64,000 nt of DNA from an uncultured Acidobacteriota bacterium (GCA_903916735.1 CAIWXX010000085.1:7883-71882); one strand, 5' to 3'; shown: positions 420-13,786, counted from the first letter of the stretch. Program-made: numbers and translations. The notes: generated by a model not told the origin, from the sequence alone.

Positions 420-793
420 GGCAAATTTATGATGCTTTGCTCGGATGTCTGTCGATTAAATTGACCTCCTGTCCGGGCAATTCTCAACAAAGGCATCCAC
501 GCGGCGATCCGCGAACCAGCTGACTGATGTGTCGGGATCGAGGCTTTTTGTATTCAATTGGGCTGAAAGGTCACCCGACGTGTCGAAAATACACTTGTGA
601 TTGGCAAAGATTTTGTGTATTCATCCCGATGGATGGGTGTTTTGACCCTTTTCGAAAACAACTCATCACAAAGCAGTGACCAAATAACAATAACCGGCCT
701 ACATTCAATGTGTACGAAGCGGATTTGAACGAGCCGATGGCAGGGGGGTCATTCGGCCAGCGGATCAGCGGACATTCCAAAAGGGAGGATGCG

Positions 794-3001
794 ATGTTTA
801 TGAGGAATCCGTTCATAGGATCGGCTGCAATCATGGCTCTCGTGCTTATTGCAGGCTTTGGGGTTCCTGTGTTTTGTGAAACCAAACCGATATCGGAAAA
901 AGCTGAAGTTTCCATTGTCGACCTCCGGGTCACTGTCCTGGATAAGGACGGCAAGCCCGTGACGGATCTCAAGGAAAATGAATTCAAGGTCAAGGATAAC
1001 GACACGCTTCAGAGTCTCGTTGCTGCGCAGCTTGTGAGCAGCGGGGTGGCAACAACCTCGACGAACACGACGGCCTCTTCTGCGCCTCAGGCCTTGCATC
1101 AGCCTCGCCATTTCCTTCTCCTGTTCGATTTGACTTACAACGATATGATCGCATTGAAAAATGCGCGCAATGCTGCGCTGCAGTTCGTGCAGCAGGACCT
1201 GGTTGAGACGGATGACGCGAGCATCTTTACGATTGACATCACGGAGGGAGTCAAAATGCATATGAACTTCACCCGTGATAAGGAGCAGCTTTCTGATGCC
1301 CTGCTGAACCTCCGTTCAACCAAGGGGAACAACTTTCTGACAGATTCCGCGGGTCTTGTTCGGATCGTCCCGGAAGCACGCGGCAATCAACTCAAAGGGA
1401 CCTGGATTCGCAAGGGGATGACTTATAATCCCAAGGATGCCGCGAACGACGAAAGCCAGTCCTATCATCAGCAGGTGAAGCGAAACGAGGTGCTCGACTA
1501 CCGCAATAGCGCCGGCAAATACCTGACCTGCCTCGATGCCTTCGCTCAGAGCATCGATACGATGCCGGGAAGGAAAATTTTTCTGCTCTTCAGTAGCGGG
1601 TTCGATTCGAAGGCGCTCGGTGGTCAGACTCTCCAAGAGACAGAAGAAGACACGATGAACTTCATGATGGGCGAATTCCAAAAGATGGACTCCGCGGGGA
1701 GAGAAGTCGATATACAAAATATCGACCTGCTGCAACAAGCGGCATCGCACTTTTCGACGAGCGATTGCCGGATTTTCTGCATCGATCCGAGCGGCAACAG
1801 GCAAACCTCTGCGGATTCCGATACGCCGGCCGATATCAATTTTCGCAATCAGACACTGCTGGAAACCCTATCCTCCGAAACCGGAGGGCAGGTTATTCGG
1901 CACACGAATTCCTACGAAGAGGCGCTTGGCCATGTCATCGAATCGACCTCGTCGTATTATCTGCTCGCCTACAGCGCGCCGATCGGCAAGTCGGGGAAAT
2001 ACCATAGCATCGATGTGGAAGTGACCAGACCCGGTTGTCGAGTCAGCCATCGAAAAGGGTACTTCGAGGACAGGCCTTTTGAGAAATACACCTCGCTGGA
2101 ACGTCAGCTTCAGGTGGCGGCGATCATTAACGAAGCCCGGTCGCCTGCAGGCATCTCAATTACGACAACCGCATTCCAGCTGCCGATGTGCCGGTCAGAG
2201 GCGGCGGTTGCTCCTCGGTCGGCCGAGAACAGCATGTATTCTATTGAAGGCATCGTCGAGCTTCCGGTGAGCGTGCTCGCCGATATGGGATCGAAAAAGG
2301 ACGAAGATATCGAATTCTTCCTGTTCGCCATTTCCGAGAAAAACTATGACGTGATCAGCTATTCTCACGGTCTCGGCAAAGCTCCGGCGACACCGCACAC
2401 AGCCGACGACGAGGCGTTGGACACCGTGCGTGGCGGTCTCCGCTACCTTGGCGTTGTGGCCGTGCCGAAAGGCACCTACAAGATCCTCGGCATCGCCCGC
2501 AATTTGATCACGGGAGTCTGTGCCGTCGGATCGATGTCTCTCAACACAACGCCTCAATCTCAGCTGACCATCGCATCTTGCCTCGTTTCGGAAGGCGGTG
2601 AATGGATGACGGTTTCCTCGAATAAGAACGGCTGCAGCCCGCTCACTTTTGAAGGCAAGCTGGTGGCGGCTCGAGCCAAACCGAATGTCAAGAGCGGAGA
2701 AGAGTGCCTCATTGTGGTGACGTTGAACGGACTCGGTCGCGATCCCATTACCGGGAAACCAACGGCTGATGTGAGCATCAAAACCATCGGGGAAGATGGG
2801 AGTGCGACTCCTCTTTCCGGTTCGCAGCTCCTCAAGGGGAATTGGACGAAGACAAACGATTACGAAATGATTTTTAAGGTCAAACTTCCCAGTGGCCTGA
2901 GCGACGGGACATATTGGTTGGATGTACAGGCCGTGGATCGTGTGGGTGAGAAGAAAGCAGCGACCAGGATACCTTTTGGAGTCGGTCGCACGAATTCCTG
3001 A
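794..3001 (+). CDS. Secreted VWA-domain protein, Acidobacterial VWFA-related type, with C-terminal extension
   Basis: Signal peptide; VDLRVTVLDKDGKPVTDLKENEF N-terminus; FLLLFDL strand; YYLLAY...SIDVEVTRPG...HRKGY end of domain. GGAGG at 784-788 supports the ATG at 794. Confidence 0.8.
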   Translation: MFMRNPFIGSAAIMALVLIAGFGVPVFCETKPISEKAEVSIVDLRVTVLDKDGKPVTDLKENEFKVKDNDTLQSLVAAQLVSSGVATTSTNTTASSAPQALHQPRHFLLLFDLTYNDMIALKNARNAALQFVQQDLVETDDASIFTIDITEGVKMHMNFTRDKEQLSDALLNLRSTKGNNFLTDSAGLVRIVPEARGNQLKGTWIRKGMTYNPKDAANDESQSYHQQVKRNEVLDYRNSAGKYLTCLDAFAQSIDTMPGRKIFLLFSSGFDSKALGGQTLQETEEDTMNFMMGEFQKMDSAGREVDIQNIDLLQQAASHFSTSDCRIFCIDPSGNRQTSADSDTPADINFRNQTLLETLSSETGGQVIRHTNSYEEALGHVIESTSSYYLLAYSAPIGKSGKYHSIDVEVTRPGCRVSHRKGYFEDRPFEKYTSLERQLQVAAIINEARSPAGISITTTAFQLPMCRSEAAVAPRSAENSMYSIEGIVELPVSVLADMGSKKDEDIEFFLFAISEKNYDVISYSHGLGKAPATPHTADDEALDTVRGGLRYLGVVAVPKGTYKILGIARNLITGVCAVGSMSLNTTPQSQLTIASCLVSEGGEWMTVSSNKNGCSPLTFEGKLVAARAKPNVKSGEECLIVVTLNGLGRDPITGKPTADVSIKTIGEDGSATPLSGSQLLKGNWTKTNDYEMIFKVKLPSGLSDGTYWLDVQAVDRVGEKKAATRIPFGVGRTNS

Positions 3002-6801: not shown

Positions 6802-7158
6802 TTACGAGGGGGATGATCTGAATTGCGTTAGTCCCACCGGAGTTGGAATGTGAGGGTTGAGGCGCTCACGCACCCAGATCCGATCGAGCCAAGGGCCGGC
6901 GAGGGTCTCTCTGAGAAATTCGATGAACGCCCGCACACCCAAAGACCGGACGATTTTGATAAGAGCAGTGGAGTAGATGGCCAAGATGTTGAGGGTGTGC
7001 GCGAGACGCATCAGGTAGTGATAGCCCTTCATGGCTTTCCAGTCGAACGAGAAGCAGTGCTCGTAGTTGTAGCCGTGACGCTTTTCGACGAGAAACGCGG
7101 ATTCGATAGCCCAGCGATGCCGTGCTCCGATGTTGCATCGTTCGTGGACGTTACCCAA
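6802..7158 (-). pseudogene. C-terminal fragment of a DDE transposase (IS relic; family uncertain)
   Basis: NVHERCNIGARHRWAIESAFLVEKRHGYNYEHCFSFDWKAMKGYHYLMRLAH resembles the RWxIE catalytic-helix region of DDE transposases. There is an in-frame stop just upstream and no N-terminal part. Confidence 0.7.
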
Positions 7159-7490
7159 CGGGCATCACCGTCCCCGCCAACCGGATGGCGAGCGTGAATA
7201 CCATCCCTCACAAAGTCTTGCCTGCATGGAACTGCACCATTGTTCCCGACACACCAAAAATGTGAATTGGTTCTTGCGCCGCCCCTTGGTGAGTATGATT
7301 ACACCAATCTGGTCGGTGCCCTAAATTGCACCGATGATTCGGAAAACACGGGCGGACACATTCGATGCGATTCGCATATTGGAAAAAGAACCGCTGAAGC
7401 TGTCGAGAAGCGTCGAGAAGCGAGGAAGAAAATGGAGGAGTGAATTTTTCCACCCCTCCTCAAATGCCAGGACCTCTTTTTGAACGGCGC

Positions 7491-8738
7491 CTACTGTCCG
7501 TACATCGCGATAATTTCTTTCTTTCCTTTGCCGAGAATATCGTGCTTCTTTCCGACCTTGATGAAGGCGGCGATGGCCTTGTCGAGGTGATGTGTTTCGT
7601 GAGCGGCCGACATCTGCGTGCGGATGCGGGCTTGCCCCTTCGGCACAACCGGAAAGAAGAATCCGACGACATAGATACCTTCAGCAAAAAGATCGCGAGC
7701 GATGTCCTGTGCGAGCCTGGCGTTGTAGAGCATGACAGGAACGATCGGGCTTTCGCCTTCTTTGATGTCGAATCCCGCTTCCGTCAGCAGCTTCCGCCAG
7801 CAAATGGTGTTCTGTTCCAGCTTATCGCGCCGCGCCGTTGTTTGCGAAATCAGGTCCATCACTTTCAGAGCCCCGGAGACAATGACGGGCGCGACAGTGT
7901 TGGAGAAGAGGAACGGACGCGCTCGCTGGCGACACATCTCAACCAGCTCCTTGCGACCGCTGACACAGCCACCGGAAGCGCCGCCGAGGGCCTTGCCGAG
8001 TGTCGTCGTGATGATGTCGATTTTCCCAACGACTCCGCAGTGTTCGTGAGTGCCTCGGCCGGTTTTGCCGATGAAGCCGCTGGCATGCGATTCATCAACG
8101 AAGACCATCGCGTTGTATTTCTCGGCGAGCGCGACAATCTGGTCGAGTTTGACTAGATCGCCGTCCATCGAAAAAACCCCGTCCGTGATCACCATGCGAA
8201 CCCGCTTGTCCTGGTGCTCCTGGAGCTTTTCTTCGAGATGAGCCATGTCGGAGTGCTTATAGGTGTCCTGCATGGCTTTGCAGAGGCGCATGCCGTCGAC
8301 GATCGATGCATGAACGAGCCGGTCGGCAATCATCACATCTTTTTCCGTGAGGACGGCTTCGAACACCCCCGCATTAGCATCCATGCATGACGGGAAGAGA
8401 AGCGTGTCTTCGGTTCCCAAAAACTCGGTCAGTTTGTTTTCGAGCTGGCGGTGAATATCCTGTGTGCCGCAGATGAAACGCACGGAGGACATCCCATAGC
8501 CGCGATAATCGAGCCCTTCATGGGCGGCCTTGACGACATCGGGATGGCTCGACAATCCGAGGTAGTTATTGGAACAGAGGTTGATGACCTGTTTCGGCGC
8601 GGCCCCCACTGGGAACTCAACTGCAATTCCCGCTGCTTGAGGCGAATGAATATAGCGTTCCTCCTTGAAAAGCCCGGCTTCGCGGATACCGCTTATTTCA
8701 TTTTCATACCATTCTCGTGTCTCTTTGCTGTAAGCCAT
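7491..8738 (-). CDS. kbl: Glycine C-acetyltransferase (2-amino-3-ketobutyrate CoA ligase), PLP alpha-oxoamine synthase
   Basis: NLCSNNYLGL, GMSSVRFICGTQDIH (SVRFICGTQ is characteristic of Kbl), DESHASG, and TTTLGKALGGASGG containing the PLP lysine. Confidence 0.88.
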   Translation of the reverse strand: MAYSKETREWYENEISGIREAGLFKEERYIHSPQAAGIAVEFPVGAAPKQVINLCSNNYLGLSSHPDVVKAAHEGLDYRGYGMSSVRFICGTQDIHRQLENKLTEFLGTEDTLLFPSCMDANAGVFEAVLTEKDVMIADRLVHASIVDGMRLCKAMQDTYKHSDMAHLEEKLQEHQDKRVRMVITDGVFSMDGDLVKLDQIVALAEKYNAMVFVDESHASGFIGKTGRGTHEHCGVVGKIDIITTTLGKALGGASGGCVSGRKELVEMCRQRARPFLFSNTVAPVIVSGALKVMDLISQTTARRDKLEQNTICWRKLLTEAGFDIKEGESPIVPVMLYNARLAQDIARDLFAEGIYVVGFFFPVVPKGQARIRTQMSAAHETHHLDKAIAAFIKVGKKHDILGKGKKEIIAMYGQ

Positions 8739-8750
8739 ATTACACTCCTG

Positions 8751-9008
8751 TCACACACGACCTTTGGTAAAGCGCGTGACTAGATCGGCGATGTTGTTGA
8801 TACTGTCGAATGCCTGCGGAGTTGCGTCGGCATCCGGTATCTGGATATTGTACTTTTTTTCCAAAAACCGTTTCAGCGACACCATTGAAAAGGAGTCCAC
8901 AATTCCGCCGGTGATGAGCGGGGTGTCTTCCTTGATCACCCGGTCATCGCCTTCTTCCAAGTACTCCCGGGTTACATATTCCGTGACCATGCGTTTCACT
9001 TCGTCCAT
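8751..9008 (-). CDS. Acyl carrier protein
   Basis: 85 aa, acidic; LITGGIVDSFSMV phosphopantetheine serine motif; FDSINNIADLV C-terminal helix. Confidence 0.88.
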   Translation of the reverse strand: MDEVKRMVTEYVTREYLEEGDDRVIKEDTPLITGGIVDSFSMVSLKRFLEKKYNIQIPDADATPQAFDSINNIADLVTRFTKGRV

Positions 9009-9045
9009 AGTGTTCTTCCTCCTGTGCGTGAATCTTCGTTCTCGT

Positions 9046-10746
9046 TCAGTCTTCCATCAAAGTCGAAATATCCCCGACCGGTTCGCCCCATTCCTGCGCG
9101 CGCAGAACGCGGCGCATGATCTTGCCGCTCCGAGTCTTCGGCAGTGATGGAACGAACTCGATCTCCTGCGGCATCGCCAGCGGGGATAGTTTTTTGCGGA
9201 TGAAATTCATGATCTCAAGTTCGAGATCATCGTTCACCTCATACCCCTTTTTCAATGTGACAAAAGCCTTGACGACTTCCATGTTCACCGGATCGGGCTT
9301 AGCGACCGCCGCCGATTCAGCGACAGCCGGGTGTTCGAGCAGAGCCGATTCGATTTCAAACGGGCCGACCAGATGGCCGCCCGTGTTGATGACATCGTCA
9401 TCACGGCCGACGAACCAGAAATATCCATCCTTGTCGATGCTCGCCCGATCTCCCGTGACATACCATCCATTTTTGAACTTATTGGCATAGCCGGTCGGGT
9501 TGTTCCAATAAGTACGGATGAGCGACGGCCAGCCGGGCCGAAGAGCGATCAAGCCGACTCGTCCGGGCGCATCATATTGCTCAAAATTCTTGGGATCCAA
9601 CACCGTGGCGGTCATGCCGGGAAATGGCCTGCCCATGGATCCAGCCTTGATGGGCATCCCAGGGAAATTGGTGACAACGATGCATCCGGTCTCGGTCTGC
9701 CAGAACGTATCATGGAATGGAAGCCCGTATGCCTCCTTGGACCAAATCACCGCTTCCGCATTCAACGGCTCGCCCACGCTGCAGAGATGCCTCAGCGATG
9801 ACAAATCGCATTTCGCGACGAGATCCTTGCCGTCCCGCATGAGGAGGCGGATCGCTGTCGGCGCCGAATACCAGACCGTCACGCGGTGCTTCTGAATGAA
9901 TGCGTACCAGCGCTCAGTATTGAATCCGGAATCCAAAACAACCTGCGTGATCCCGTTGGACCATGGCCCGATGATTCCGTACGACGTGCCCGTCACCCAG
10001 CCAGGGTCGGCATTGCACCAGTAGATGTCATCCGGCCTGAGATCCAAGACCCATTTGGCGGTGAGGTACTGTGAAATGAGTGAATAGTGAACATGCTGAG
10101 CGCCTTTAGGCTGGCCCGTCGTTCCGGATGTGTAATGGAGAACAGACGGAGTTTCAGCCATCGAAGGAAAGACGTCGAAGTGATCGACTCGAGGCACTTC
10201 TTCCATCGCGAAGGAATGCTCCCCTTCTTTCAGCGGCGAACCGGCCGCATCAACGACGATGACATGCCTGAGCTCAGGCAGCTTGTCGCGGATCTTCCGA
10301 ACCTTCGGCACGTACTTCTTCTGCGTGAATATGGCGCTGGTTTTTGCATCATTCAGTCGAGTCCAGAGGGATTCGTCTCCGAAGGCGGAAAAAAGAGGTT
10401 GCACGATCCCGCCCATCTTGAGAACTCCGAGGAACCCGATATACAACTCGGGGATACGATCCATGAAAAGGCAAATTCTTTCCCCGGGTTTCAATCCAAG
10501 GTCGCAGACATATCTGGCGATTGTATTCGACAAGATACGCACATCATCATAGGTGAAGCTTTTGCCTGTGCCAAGGAAATCCTCCCAGATCAACGCCGGT
10601 TTCCGGCCGTGTCCCAGTTTGCAGATGCGATCACTGCAATGCCAGCCGATGTTGATCGTGTCGCCTTTTCGATAGCCCAGTTCTTTCTCGGAAATGGACC
10701 AGTCAAAGCCCTTGAGCCGATCCTCGTACATCAGTTGATCTGTCAT
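9046..10746 (-). CDS. Acetate-CoA ligase-like AMP-binding enzyme (possibly ACP-acylating)
   Basis: LHYTSGTTGQPKG, SVGEPLN, DTFWQTETG, GRDDDVI, and KTRSGKIMRR acetyl-CoA synthetase motifs. Confidence 0.88.
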   Translation of the reverse strand: MTDQLMYEDRLKGFDWSISEKELGYRKGDTINIGWHCSDRICKLGHGRKPALIWEDFLGTGKSFTYDDVRILSNTIARYVCDLGLKPGERICLFMDRIPELYIGFLGVLKMGGIVQPLFSAFGDESLWTRLNDAKTSAIFTQKKYVPKVRKIRDKLPELRHVIVVDAAGSPLKEGEHSFAMEEVPRVDHFDVFPSMAETPSVLHYTSGTTGQPKGAQHVHYSLISQYLTAKWVLDLRPDDIYWCNADPGWVTGTSYGIIGPWSNGITQVVLDSGFNTERWYAFIQKHRVTVWYSAPTAIRLLMRDGKDLVAKCDLSSLRHLCSVGEPLNAEAVIWSKEAYGLPFHDTFWQTETGCIVVTNFPGMPIKAGSMGRPFPGMTATVLDPKNFEQYDAPGRVGLIALRPGWPSLIRTYWNNPTGYANKFKNGWYVTGDRASIDKDGYFWFVGRDDDVINTGGHLVGPFEIESALLEHPAVAESAAVAKPDPVNMEVVKAFVTLKKGYEVNDDLELEIMNFIRKKLSPLAMPQEIEFVPSLPKTRSGKIMRRVLRAQEWGEPVGDISTLMED

Positions 10747-11312
10747 CCGTTCACCCCCTCCTCGGGAAGAATATGTGTGGTTCAGAAGTCCAAGACGAAG
10801 CCGGCGCCGGCGATACCGTACACCTGAAGGAAGCCGGCCGATAACAAGGGCCGATGCTGATTATCATTTTTGAGGGTTAATCATCGAATGTGGGGTGTGC
10901 CGCATAGGTTTGAATCAGCAAAGGGAACTTCCTCCGGAGAAGTAAAATACCCGCGCCGTCTGATGCTGTCAAGATTAACTTCACAGCTCTACCAATTGCC
11001 GGTCATCAACTCACAGTGCTTAATCAATCCCTCACGGTCCCGAGGTCATCGCTTCGATTCCGATCTTCGGCCTTCTCAAGATCAAGGTATGGGGTAAGCC
11101 TGACTCCACCAAGAAGCCGCCGATGAATGATCTGGTTTCGTCCTCCGCCCTATTTTCGGAGGGAAATTATGTCACGGGTATGGTCGTGAACCTGTGGATG
11201 CAATGCTGAGATTTCATTTTTCGCGAAATAAGAAGCGCCATATGGTCCACGCCACTCAAACCGCATCTGGGAGCAGGCAACTGTGACACATGTTACTCGC
11301 TCTCAGCGAAAA

Positions 11313-12212
11313 TCATCTCCGAAGGCGCGCCTCCACAGCAGCTCTGACCGCCGTTCGGTGCGCCCCCCGATAAAATTCCTGCTGCGAAGTAGCGAAATGA
11401 AATTGTGCACATGCATCGTCCCATGTGAAACCGATCCTCCGGGCCAATTCGTCATCACGCAAAGAAGTGTCCAACGGAGGCTTCTGGTGAGCAGCCTCTG
11501 CGATTCGGCTTTCCACTTCATCGAAATAGGCCAGATTGAGGTTGATCACCGAATCGTCGTAACGGCCGACCGCGTGGCAATAAAAAACCTGCCGCGCCGC
11601 GAGCGACTTCATGCGCACCAGCGAGGACCGCATCTGGGTGTAAGTCACATCGCTGTCCACGAATGGTAGTGGGTACTCGGCCGCATCTCCCGCCAATAGC
11701 GCCGGAATTTCCGGTATGAACACTGCGATATGATCGGCCCTGTGCCCTGGTGTCGCCACGATGCGCAGGGTCAGGTCGCCGGTATGAATTTCGGCGCCGT
11801 CATTCACCGTGATCGTTGGTGGAACGAGTCGCACGGACCCATAAAGATCGGGCTCTTCGATCTTCTTCTTCGCAAGCACAGCCCACTCCTCAGCCGATTC
11901 CATGCGCTGTCGGCAGAGAGGATGAGCCAGGATCGGTGCCGGATGAGGCGCCGAATCTCCGGCAAAGCAACCATTCCCCCAGGCATGATCCCAATCCGCG
12001 TGCGTGTTGATGACCAGAAGCTCTCTGCCTTTCAGATCTTCCGACATCAGATCAATGGCCTCACCAGCCATCGGCGCGTTAAGAAGTGTGTCCACGAGAA
12101 CAAGATACCGCTTGGTCACGATTCCAAAGACGGTGACAAGATCCGAATATTGCAAAACCTTCACTCGGGGATCCCATCCATCGTTGGGAGTCATCTCGAT
12201 CGGGCAGCCCAT
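11313..12212 (-). CDS. MBL-fold metallo-hydrolase
   Basis: INTHADWDHAWGN, TPGHRADH, LAGDA, and YCH motifs. Confidence 0.85.
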   Translation of the reverse strand: MGCPIEMTPNDGWDPRVKVLQYSDLVTVFGIVTKRYLVLVDTLLNAPMAGEAIDLMSEDLKGRELLVINTHADWDHAWGNGCFAGDSAPHPAPILAHPLCRQRMESAEEWAVLAKKKIEEPDLYGSVRLVPPTITVNDGAEIHTGDLTLRIVATPGHRADHIAVFIPEIPALLAGDAAEYPLPFVDSDVTYTQMRSSLVRMKSLAARQVFYCHAVGRYDDSVINLNLAYFDEVESRIAEAAHQKPPLDTSLRDDELARRIGFTWDDACAQFHFATSQQEFYRGAHRTAVRAAVEARLRR

Positions 12213-12271: not shown

Positions 12272-13573
12272 CTATGCAGCCGGCGCCCTCTTCTCCCTGG
12301 CAGCGATTGCGCGGCTGACGAATGTCAGAGCCGCCGCGGCCAGGAGCATTCCGATGATGATGAAGTAGGTCAAATCATTAGAGCCTGTCACATCCTTGAT
12401 CCTTCCATGCACCCACGGCCCGATGAGGCCGGCGGCGCCCCAGGCACTGAAGAGGATGCCATAGTTGAGTCCGAAATTTTTTAAACCAAAATAATCTCTG
12501 GCCGCAGATGGGAAAAGAGACAGATTCGATCCATAATTGGCTCCGATAAGTAAAACGATCATCATCATCGAAAGCCAGCCGGCTCCTCCTTGGACGAGGT
12601 AGAGAACTGCAAGGACGACGGCTTGTGTGATCAGCGTCAGGAAGAGGGTCCATTGCCGGCCGATGATATCGGAGAGAGTTCCAGCAAGAATTCGACCACC
12701 GGCATTGCCGATCGCCAGTACGACGACGGCGAGGAAGGCAAGCTCGCCGAGAGATCTCCTACCGAAGTCCTGCGCAACACTGATGAAAGTCAGCCCGGCA
12801 GAAGCGCCGGCAAAAAAAATGATCCAGAGGATGTAAAACTGGGAGCAGCGAAGCATGTGCTTCCAGGTCGTATCGGAGCCTGATGGAGCAACAATCGAAG
12901 ATTTCCCATCCTTCGATGGTGACGGATTCGGCTGAGCGGCCGAAGGATTTCTCAGAAATTGCGAAAGAACCGTGACCACGAGGAGGAATCCGATTCCGAA
13001 TGTGATCATCGTGCTGGAAACGCCCTTTTCAACAACCTCAACTCCTGTCAATGGATCCAAAAGGCCGGTGCCTTTGCTGAAAACGTGGAGGAGTTTATTC
13101 GCCAGAGGTGCGATATAAACTGAAGCGAGTCCGAAGCCGGAAACGACGATGCCTGCAATCATGCCGGTCTTCTTCGGCGGAAACCATTTCACAGCGGGCG
13201 GTGTTGCGGATGCATAGCCGAAGCCGATGCCGAAGCCTGCCAGGATGCCGAAACCGATGACAAAGCCGGTCAGCGAGGAGCCCGAGAGGCCGGCGATGAT
13301 GCATCCGAGGCCGGTGAGAACACCGCCAATCGTCGCAACCCAGCGCGGACCGATGGCATCCTGCAGGCGGCCGGCCGGAATCATGGCTATGGCAAAACAG
13401 ATGCAAGCAACCGAATACGGCAAAGCCCTCGCCGCATTGCTCCATCCCCATGAAACAGGAATGCCTCCCTTGATGACGCTCCACGTATAGAGAATCCCCA
13501 GCGCCAGATTGATGCCCGTCCCCGAGAGAGTGACGATCCAGCCGGGTTTCGTTTCAAACTTGCTCATCCTCAT
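12272..13573 (-). CDS. OFA-family MFS transporter (oxalate/formate antiporter-like)
   Basis: About 12 hydrophobic segments; GRLQDAIGPR and GTLSDIIGR MFS loop motifs; KWFPPKKTGMIAGIVVSGFG. Confidence 0.85.
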   Translation of the reverse strand: MRMSKFETKPGWIVTLSGTGINLALGILYTWSVIKGGIPVSWGWSNAARALPYSVACICFAIAMIPAGRLQDAIGPRWVATIGGVLTGLGCIIAGLSGSSLTGFVIGFGILAGFGIGFGYASATPPAVKWFPPKKTGMIAGIVVSGFGLASVYIAPLANKLLHVFSKGTGLLDPLTGVEVVEKGVSSTMITFGIGFLLVVTVLSQFLRNPSAAQPNPSPSKDGKSSIVAPSGSDTTWKHMLRCSQFYILWIIFFAGASAGLTFISVAQDFGRRSLGELAFLAVVVLAIGNAGGRILAGTLSDIIGRQWTLFLTLITQAVVLAVLYLVQGGAGWLSMMMIVLLIGANYGSNLSLFPSAARDYFGLKNFGLNYGILFSAWGAAGLIGPWVHGRIKDVTGSNDLTYFIIIGMLLAAAALTFVSRAIAAREKRAPAA

Positions 13574-13786
13574 GACCCTTTCAATGTCGTTGCATTCAGT
13601 GCGCAGCTGTGAAGTGGTTTCGTCGCTGAAGGTCAATGTTCATGGGGTTGTCAATGGGCTCTTCCTGCAGGGGGTTGGGAATTGCCCACATCTGAATTGA
13701 CCGACAGATCTTTGACCAAGTCCACGATCGACCCATCCACATCAGGTTGAATATGGATGTCCATTATCGCCACCCCTGGTCGTTCT

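Follow-up and report, generated by a model that had tools for sequence, protein, structure and literature searches.

What could an acetate--CoA ligase-like enzyme, a small carrier protein and a relative of glycine C-acetyltransferase be doing together in one gene cluster? This question is raised by three adjoining genes in a 64,000-nucleotide stretch of DNA from an uncultured Acidobacteriota bacterium (GCA_903916735.1 CAIWXX010000085.1:7883-71882), the whole of which is referred to here as the window. NCBIfam models name the triad acetate--CoA ligase, acyl carrier protein (ACP) and glycine C-acetyltransferase. A preliminary description of the locus had reported three co-oriented genes separated by 37 and 12 bp, and this proved exact: all open reading frames (ORFs) lie where they had been placed, on the minus strand, with a gap of 37 bp between ligase and ACP (9009-9045) and of 12 bp between ACP and the last gene, which encodes an alpha-oxoamine synthase (AOS) (8739-8750). 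The module and its putative signals are as follows.

9046-10746, minus strand: AcsA-type AMP-forming ligase, 566 aa, a proposed acetate:[carrier protein] ligase
8751-9008, minus strand: stand-alone carrier protein (ACP), 85 aa, with Ser39 in GGIVDSFSM as the phosphopantetheine site
7491-8738, minus strand: Kbl-derived AOS, 415 aa, a proposed glycine C-acetyltransferase acting on acetyl-ACP
10944-10972, minus strand: candidate sigma-70-like promoter, TTGACA-17-TATTTT, recognized by consensus matches only (10/12), about 200 bp 5' of the ligase start
7434-7459, minus strand: intrinsic-terminator-like hairpin with an 11-bp stem and a T-rich tail, 32 bp past the AOS stop

To judge from their sequences, these genes form a ligase/ACP/AOS tripartite system of independent origin that carries short-chain and glycine-type signatures. 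No description of the combination of a ligase, an ACP and a Kbl-type AOS was found by full-text searches of the literature. The small gaps, the promoter-like site and the terminator hairpin make it likely that the ligase, ACP and AOS genes are one transcription unit. The 567-bp gap upstream of the ligase (10747-11312) is non-coding and contains no acpS. Neither the window nor nine related loci yielded a riboswitch or leader 5' of the module, the sole match being a sub-threshold serC-leader inside the ligase gene (E 0.097).

The arrangement recurs far beyond the window. When one genome per species was scanned, the carrier turned up at least 574 times, and 80 loci were kept for comparison. The carrier-bearing groups include Acidobacteriota, Gemmatimonadota, Zixibacteria, Ignavibacteriota, Calditrichota, Fibrobacterota, Latescibacterota, Eisenbacteria and Polyangia, among others. 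The order ligase-ACP-AOS on a single strand is found in the 80 loci wherever the contig extends far enough, and a few loci lack one gene at a contig end. The exception is an Ignavibacteriaceae genome (locus L090, genome G010): no ligase is encoded near its ACP-AOS pair, and the module ligase is found on the same contig at a distance of about 320 kb. Across the 80 loci, which span about ten phyla, identity to the window proteins is 67-84% for the ligase and 73-88% for the AOS. The preliminary description had proposed to examine the neighbourhood across genomes and had named a non-conserved gene order as the outcome that would count against it; the order is kept across the 80 loci.

The genes that accompany the module are few. 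In 57 of the 80 loci, the gene directly upstream of the ligase encodes an AcpS-type phosphopantetheinyl transferase (PPTase), and in most of the 16 genomes checked this cassette AcpS is a second copy beside the housekeeping AcpS. Other recurring neighbours are an 81-aa protein of no known family, found in 13 loci, and a tandem-Usp protein, found in 12. A small ORF of the window (7208-7453) was considered as a counterpart of the 81-aa protein, which lies 3' of the AOS in those 13 loci, and was rejected for want of any similarity. No reductase or N-acyltransferase recurs near the module in the 80 loci, and the module is thus self-contained. The copy in the window is an ordinary, AcpS-less member.

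The named RecA proteins nearest to that of the window genome come from Acidobacteriota. Co-inheritance was measured in an even set of 301 Acidobacteriota genomes from 185 genera. The carrier is present in 31 of these genomes, belonging to 25 genera. Exactly the same 31 genomes contain an AOS with 72% identity or more to the window copy, and no other AOS anywhere exceeds 63%. Ligases that reach 63% identity to the window copy are confined to 26 genomes, all of them carrier genomes, and are absent from the 270 others. The nominal Fisher p-values of the two co-occurrences are 6e-43 and 8e-33, calculated for genomes that are not phylogenetically independent. In one family, the ligase is encoded 29-37 kb away or on another contig and still co-occurs with its partners (G073, G202, G136 and G112). 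These unlinked-ligase genomes give profile evidence that is independent of adjacency. Because the arrangement recurs in the loci examined and the genes co-occur strictly across the 301 genomes, chance is far too weak to account for the triad.

These distributions bear directly on one rival explanation, namely that housekeeping genes are merely adjacent here: an ordinary acetyl-CoA synthetase, a CoA-dependent Kbl and a carrier protein that serves something else. The ligase and the AOS both pass NCBI equivalog cut-offs, the ligase is the sole Acs-like gene in the window genome, and no cassette AcpS is found in this locus, all of which would agree with such an explanation. Against it stand the match of ACP and the AOS clade (31 of 31 carrier genomes versus none of 270), the restriction of the ligase clade to ACP-bearing genomes even where it is unlinked, the gene order conserved across phyla, and the dedicated second AcpS of most genomes. 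Separate canonical Acs and Kbl enzymes are also present in most module genomes, so mere adjacency of housekeeping genes is very improbable. An ordinary Acs of about 650 aa is encoded additionally in 12 of 16 module genomes, and an ordinary tdh-kbl pair is found besides the module in several (G004 and G007). Given these ordinary Acs enzymes and tdh-kbl pairs, the module is an extra, specialised function and not a housekeeping pathway.

The 85-aa protein has no Pfam match. It matches NCBIfam ACP models (best 6e-18), and its family profile retrieves carrier proteins from the PDB. An AlphaFold (AF2) model with a pLDDT of 87.6 places helices at residues 2-16, 39-52 and 70-82, with Ser39 at the start of helix 2. 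The carrier family is large and conserved to an unusual degree: of 7565 homologues, the best 120 are all at least 72% identical. Residues D38 and S39 are invariant. The profile match to carriers in the PDB, the carrier fold and the invariant Ser39 together identify the protein as a phosphopantetheine carrier protein. The top Foldseek matches of the model are PltL, PigG and DltC (TM about 0.8), and with the glycyl carrier protein of B. japonicum they make up the best fold and profile matches (TM about 0.7-0.85). In both fold and profile comparison, the protein is nearest to carriers loaded by ANL adenylating enzymes, and these four best matches are each loaded by a dedicated adenylating enzyme. 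They differ in that they carry amino acids for secondary metabolism or teichoic acid alanylation, whereas the partners of the module carrier are an acetate-pocket ligase and a Kbl paralogue as the presumed consumer. An identity as the NCBIfam 'ornithine-lipid ACP' was rejected, the score being 65 bits against a cut-off of 130, and the OlsH/OlsI paper offers no parallel.

The ligase passes the acetate--CoA ligase model NF003313 marginally, with 739.2 bits against a cut-off of 729. Its best match in the PDB is a 572-aa acetyl-CoA synthetase (9g79, 548 bits). The acetate-pocket residues V310, T311, V386 and W414 (numbered as in S. enterica Acs) and the catalytic Lys609, which is the Lys of SGKIMRR, are intact in all 66 module ligases. 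The module ligase therefore shares its acetate pocket, catalytic Lys and overall length with the Bacillus-type AcsA enzymes of NF003313 and 9g79. It differs from them in that its clade is confined to ACP-bearing genomes, usually beside a canonical 650-aa Acs, and in that its proposed acceptor is a carrier protein. Since the ligase clade co-occurs with the ACP, the carrier rather than CoA is suggested to be the acceptor. Changes of R526 to L and of S523 to G in the A8 loop were considered as a mark of ACP use and were rejected, because ACP-less AcsA-like paralogues of the phylum share the same loop.

The AOS scores above the Kbl equivalog cut-offs (TIGR01822, 584.6 versus 493 bits; NF005394, 582.8 versus 460 bits), carries the SSVRFICGTQ motif and shares 52.6% identity with E. 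coli Kbl. Its closest solved relatives are the Kbl enzymes 7v58, 7bxp and 1fc4 (about 452-461 bits), and Spt, ALAS and BioF score far lower. A maximum-likelihood tree was built from 92 AOS sequences, 31 of them from the module. The module proteins form a monophyletic group with SH-aLRT support of 100 and very short branches, nested in the canonical Kbl radiation that contains E. coli Kbl. The phylogeny that the preliminary description had proposed, with Kbl, BioF, Spt and CqsA as the possible homes of the AOS, thus returns one clade within Kbl. An identity as CqsA/LqsA was rejected on NF005526 (197.1 bits versus a cut-off of 428). An Spt identity was likewise rejected by its place within Kbl and by the scores on NF047600, NF047599 and NF047603 (319, 269 and 225 bits versus cut-offs of 640, 500 and 670). 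In the same tree, the module AOS of a Fibrobacter sp. metagenome-assembled genome (MAG) (L028) and of a Latescibacterota MAG (L030) are almost identical, with branch lengths of 0 and 0.029, and their bins belong to different phyla; this near-identity points to a very recent transfer or a binning error.

The residues N50, V79, H136, S185, D210, H213, T241, K244 and R368, which correspond to the catalytic and glycine-binding positions of Kbl, are kept in all 69 module AOS proteins. Their roles are taken from published work on Kbl-type enzymes, in which mutagenesis identified Val79 as the glycine gatekeeper (PMC9814548, PMC11906848). The short-chain and glycine signatures that had been seen in both enzymes of the window thus extend to the family as a whole, with the pocket and Lys in 66 of 66 ligases and the Kbl residues with Val79 in 69 of 69 AOS proteins. 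The clade also has features of its own. Position 135, beside the catalytic His, is Asn in 18 of 18 canonical Kbl enzymes and Val in 68 of the 69 module proteins, and position 112, in the SCFDAN motif, is Phe in 17 of 18 canonical enzymes and Met or Leu in all 69. Further signatures are A133R, L298R, an insertion of 2-3 residues (EFP) and a conserved C-terminal tail of about 15 residues (..ILGlGKKei..rYG). In the AOS family, the PLP-stacking His that neighbours position 135 polarises the thioester carbonyl (PMC9304779). N135V and F112M/L adjoin this His and are therefore predicted to sit where the enzyme handles its thioester substrate. The strict linkage of the AOS to the carrier protein suggests acyl-ACP as that thioester. 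The idea that overall charge might reveal an ACP landing pad was rejected, since the median net charge is -4 in module AOS proteins and canonical Kbl enzymes alike.

An ANL ligase, a private carrier and an AOS are also combined in sphingolipid synthesis. In Proteobacteria that include Caulobacter and E. coli B, AasR has the private carrier AcpR as its only acyl acceptor, and Spt works preferentially on acyl-AcpR (PMC9386255). Another AOS, SulA of Alistipes, which is a cysteate acyl-ACP transferase, prefers acyl-ACP over acyl-CoA (PMC9304779). The resemblance of the window to the Caulobacter ceramide locus had been pointed out in the preliminary description. It stands as an analogy (PMC9386255) and fails as a statement of descent. 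In a direct comparison with the AasR-AcpR-Spt locus of E. coli BL21(DE3), identity amounts to 23% between the ligase and AasR over the ANL core (E 2e-15) and to 30% between the AOS and Spt, and the ACP shows no similarity to AcpR (E 0.91). Homology to the ceramide locus was thereby ruled out. The likeness consists of clustered genes for an ANL ligase that serves a private carrier, a small dedicated ACP and an AOS that works on acyl-ACP, these roles being read from the genes alone in the case of the module. The differences are numerous. AasR is of the FAAL type and its partner of the Spt type, whereas the module has an AcsA-type ligase and a Kbl-type AOS. Long chains and serine are used there, and a short-chain pocket and a glycine signature are found here. 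The module also has no ceramide tailoring genes, usually has a dedicated AcpS and occurs in other phyla. SulA shares with the module the proposed use of acyl-ACP by an AOS, and differs in belonging to the Spt clade, in using a long chain and cysteate with the housekeeping ACP, and in having no dedicated ligase. These comparisons suggest that the module owes its parts to AcsA, a PCP-like carrier and Kbl, and that it is an analogue of AasR-AcpR-Spt and not a member of that system.

The shared architecture (PMC9386255) and the existence of AOS enzymes that use acyl-ACP (PMC9304779) would also suit a sphingoid-base, aminolipid or biotin-type pathway, in which a long or dicarboxylic acyl-ACP is condensed as in Spt, SulA or BioF. 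The AOS scores far under the cut-offs of the Spt, BioF and CqsA models, homology to AasR and AcpR is lacking, the short-chain Trp pocket and the Gly-selecting Val are kept, and reductases or N-acyltransferases do not recur nearby. A BioF identity in particular was rejected (TIGR00858, 362.4 bits versus a cut-off of 426.45). No bioB or bioD was found by tblastn with the E. coli proteins in the window genome, which is 98.7% complete, and bioA-like matches reach only about 30% identity. A lipid or biotin role is scarcely credible on this evidence. Given the absence of bioB and bioD homologues from so complete an assembly, the organism is probably a biotin auxotroph.

What reaction, then, would the module carry out? 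It is proposed that acetate is loaded on the private carrier and condensed with glycine by the Kbl paralogue to give 2-amino-3-oxobutyrate, and this reading of the sequences is judged to have about an even chance of being right. In the first step, the AcsA-type ligase would adenylate acetate, or at most a C2-C3 acid. The phosphopantetheine thiol of the 85-aa carrier would then receive the acyl group from the ligase. In the third step, the Kbl-derived PLP enzyme, with glycine bound as external aldimine, would attack acetyl-S-ACP, and 2-amino-3-oxobutyrate and holo-ACP would be formed. Finally, 2-amino-3-oxobutyrate could be converted to L-threonine by a threonine dehydrogenase (TDH) encoded elsewhere, or it could decarboxylate spontaneously to aminoacetone. 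Four elements of this scheme are inferred: the acylation of the carrier, the preference of the AOS for acyl-ACP, acetyl as the acyl group and the net direction of condensation. Condensation is favoured because the genes keep their order and are strictly co-inherited, a dedicated PPTase usually accompanies them, the determinants for acetate and glycine are intact, and the precedents described above exist.

Several points weigh against this scheme. The ligase is absent from four or five of the 31 genomes that have ACP and AOS. The contigs of two of these (G076 and G078) end at the carrier, so that the ligase is not seen, and the other three absences look genuine. One genome (G192, locus L134) has an ACP-AOS pair without an AcsA-type ligase. 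The second (G262, L135) has AcpS-ACP-AOS followed by an IS200/RAYT-like gene, again without such a ligase, and the third (G213, L136) has ACP-AOS only, with a divergent PP2C/SpoIIE-like membrane protein upstream. It follows from these ligase-less genomes that the invariant core of the module is ACP and AOS. The window ligase, as the only Acs-like enzyme of its genome, may also, or only, make acetyl-CoA, and no sequence feature of the ligase, the A8 loop compared with ACP-less paralogues included, separates an ACP acceptor from a CoA acceptor. N135V and F112M/L may mean that the acyl pocket of the AOS is suited to a group other than acetyl. Among the 80 loci, no gene for a downstream enzyme that would consume the product recurs. 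The equilibrium of Kbl probably favours cleavage, by analogy with thiolase. The module in the window, moreover, has no cassette AcpS, and the carrier would have to be primed by another PPTase for this reason. The weak candidates for such an enzyme are two sub-threshold PPTase-domain matches on other contigs (C137:62642-62851 and C136:12227-12379, with 44.9 and 25 bits). As a separate observation, the window genome must prime its fatty-acid ACP, yet no AcpS-type gene was detected in it with two cassette AcpS queries.

The two substitutions beside the catalytic His also lead to a different product. If another short acid, such as propionate, glycolate, lactate or similar, were loaded, the module would make a different alpha-aminoketone, which could be a signal of the CqsA/LqsA kind, a building block or a pyrazine precursor. 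N135V and F112M/L adjoin the PLP-stacking, thioester-polarising His (PMC9304779), the ligase stands barely above the acetate--CoA ligase cut-off, and a lactate-family monocarboxylate transporter is encoded beside the module both here and in a relative of the same family (G045). The four acetate-pocket residues, including the Trp that limits chain length, are nevertheless kept in 66 of 66 ligases, the AOS lies within Kbl and far from CqsA (NF005526, 197 versus 428 bits), and the transporter is linked to the module in only 2-3 of about 90 loci. Loading of an acid other than acetate is therefore improbable.

The proposed product, 2-amino-3-oxobutyrate, is an intermediate of the Tdh-Kbl pathway, represented by kbl-tdh of E. 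coli. The module AOS shares with Kbl of that pathway an equivalog-level score, the identity given above and the catalytic and glycine residues, and in some loci the module lies between tdh and kbl. It differs in forming a separate clade that always adjoins a carrier, in N135V, F112M/L and the C-terminal extension, and in usually coexisting with an ordinary Kbl; ACP in place of CoA is its proposed thioester partner. A link to threonine and 2-amino-3-oxobutyrate had been put forward in the preliminary description, together with the absence of tdh from the window. That absence was confirmed. The link is borne out by the adjacency of tdh or canonical kbl to the module in nine of the 80 loci, in three phyla, but the notion that the module needs no tdh was too strong, as 14 of 17 genomes have a TDH candidate, which belongs to one or the other of two types (module genomes only were counted).

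The adjoining genes differ from locus to locus. The tdh gene is adjacent in four of the 80 loci. In a Zixibacteria locus (L061), the genes tdh-acpS-ligase-ACP-AOS-kbl follow one another on a single strand, and in L032 a Zn-type tdh lies upstream of the module. In L012 and L013, a gene for an SDR-type threonine dehydrogenase, which scores 427 bits against TDH structures, is convergent with the AOS gene. Canonical kbl lies 0.1-5 kb from the module in L041, L061, L080, L083 and L090, in the last of these 1 kb 3' of the AOS. Among the 17 module genomes, a Zn-type TDH of at least 370 bits is present in seven, an SDR-type TDH with more than 50% identity in three, and a more divergent SDR-TDH-like gene in four, including the window genome (contig C49). 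The Zn-type and SDR-type enzymes are complementary in distribution among these genomes. In the window genome, the best Zn-type tdh-like matches lie on other contigs and are below the cut-off, and the SDR-type TDH-like gene is the one on C49.

The same evidence could be read in the opposite direction. In this case, TDH would make 2-amino-3-oxobutyrate, and the AOS would cleave it with holo-ACP to glycine and acetyl-ACP. Acetyl-ACP would then be a private acetyl donor, or a reversed ligase would convert it to acetate and ATP (from AMP and PPi). Cleavage is the physiological direction of Kbl, which, unlike other AOS enzymes, does not decarboxylate. The tdh gene directly upstream in L032 and L061, the SDR-type TDH beside the module in L012 and L013, the TDH candidates in 14 of 17 module genomes and the persistence of ACP-AOS without a ligase in G192, G262 and G213 are consistent with this direction. 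AMP-forming ligases seldom reverse in vivo, however, and an ordinary tdh-kbl pair already serves many module genomes. No enzyme that consumes acetyl-ACP recurs nearby in the 80 loci. The order of ligase, carrier and condensing enzyme and the dedicated AcpS also resemble biosynthetic tripartite systems (PMC9386255). Cleavage is thus unlikely on balance, while retaining appreciable weight beside the favoured condensation of acetate and glycine.

If condensation is the correct reading, the consequences extend to many organisms. In at least about 570 species, mostly uncultured bacteria, the module could provide a CoA-independent, carrier-bound acetyl branch, in which ATP drives the conversion of acetate and glycine to threonine with the help of TDH, or in which aminoacetone is produced from a controlled source, in either case apart from the acetyl-CoA pool. 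A role of this breadth is rather doubtful at present. Because annotation pipelines label its genes as an acetate--CoA ligase, an acyl carrier protein and a glycine C-acetyltransferase, the module does not show up when the metabolism of Acidobacteriota, Zixibacteria, Ignavibacteria, Gemmatimonadota and related phyla is reconstructed. If the proposal is true, AasR-AcpR-Spt would have in the module its first counterpart that uses a short chain and glycine, and tripartite ligase/ACP/AOS systems would have two or more separate origins in distinct enzyme lineages. Models of acetate, glycine and threonine carbon flow would change for many soil and sediment bacteria, and an AOS that accepts protein-bound C2 thioesters would be of biocatalytic interest.

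Other genes of the window genome touch on the same metabolism. A second AOS is encoded on contig C61 (12263-13441, plus strand); it is a canonical Kbl with 650 bits on the Kbl model and is 59.7% identical to the module AOS. This gene adjoins D-3-phosphoglycerate-dehydrogenase-like and DUF1015-like genes, not tdh. Replacement of threonine synthase by the module was considered and is not supported for the window genome, because a PRK08197-type ThrC ORF is present (C164:52126-53214, minus strand; 298.9 bits versus a cut-off of 303). This ORF is the only threonine-synthase-like gene in the window genome and is missed by the TIGR00260 model, which at E<=1e-20 found no threonine synthase in the window genome, G010, G012 or G015. 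No homoserine kinase was found in the window genome by tblastn with E. coli ThrB.

The genes that flank the module in the window are the following.

12272-13636, minus strand: SfMCT-type monocarboxylate (L-lactate family) MFS transporter, upstream of the module (NF049980, 373 bits versus a cut-off of 320)
11313-12212, minus strand: MBL-fold hydrolase between the transporter and the module (Pfam Lactamase_B match, weak NCBIfam matches)
6802-7158, minus strand: 118-aa transposase-like remnant (translation read by eye; no Pfam match)

In genome G045, which belongs to the same family, a transporter homologue with 55% identity is encoded directly downstream of the module (L139 5680-6975, minus strand), and a partial one is found in L057. 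The SfMCT-type transporter may be a family-specific supplier of the acid substrate. The MBL-fold hydrolase was not found beside the module in other loci, and its link to the module is uncertain. The transposase-like remnant separates the terminator of the module from polysaccharide-type genes for a WcaF-like acetyltransferase, a B12-radical SAM protein and a GT4 protein, none of which recurs beside the module in the 80 loci. This position suggests that the remnant marks a rearrangement boundary. Upstream of the GT4, radical SAM and acetyltransferase set, a 763-aa exported protein, of the VWA type by its appearance, is encoded at 710-3001 on the plus strand.

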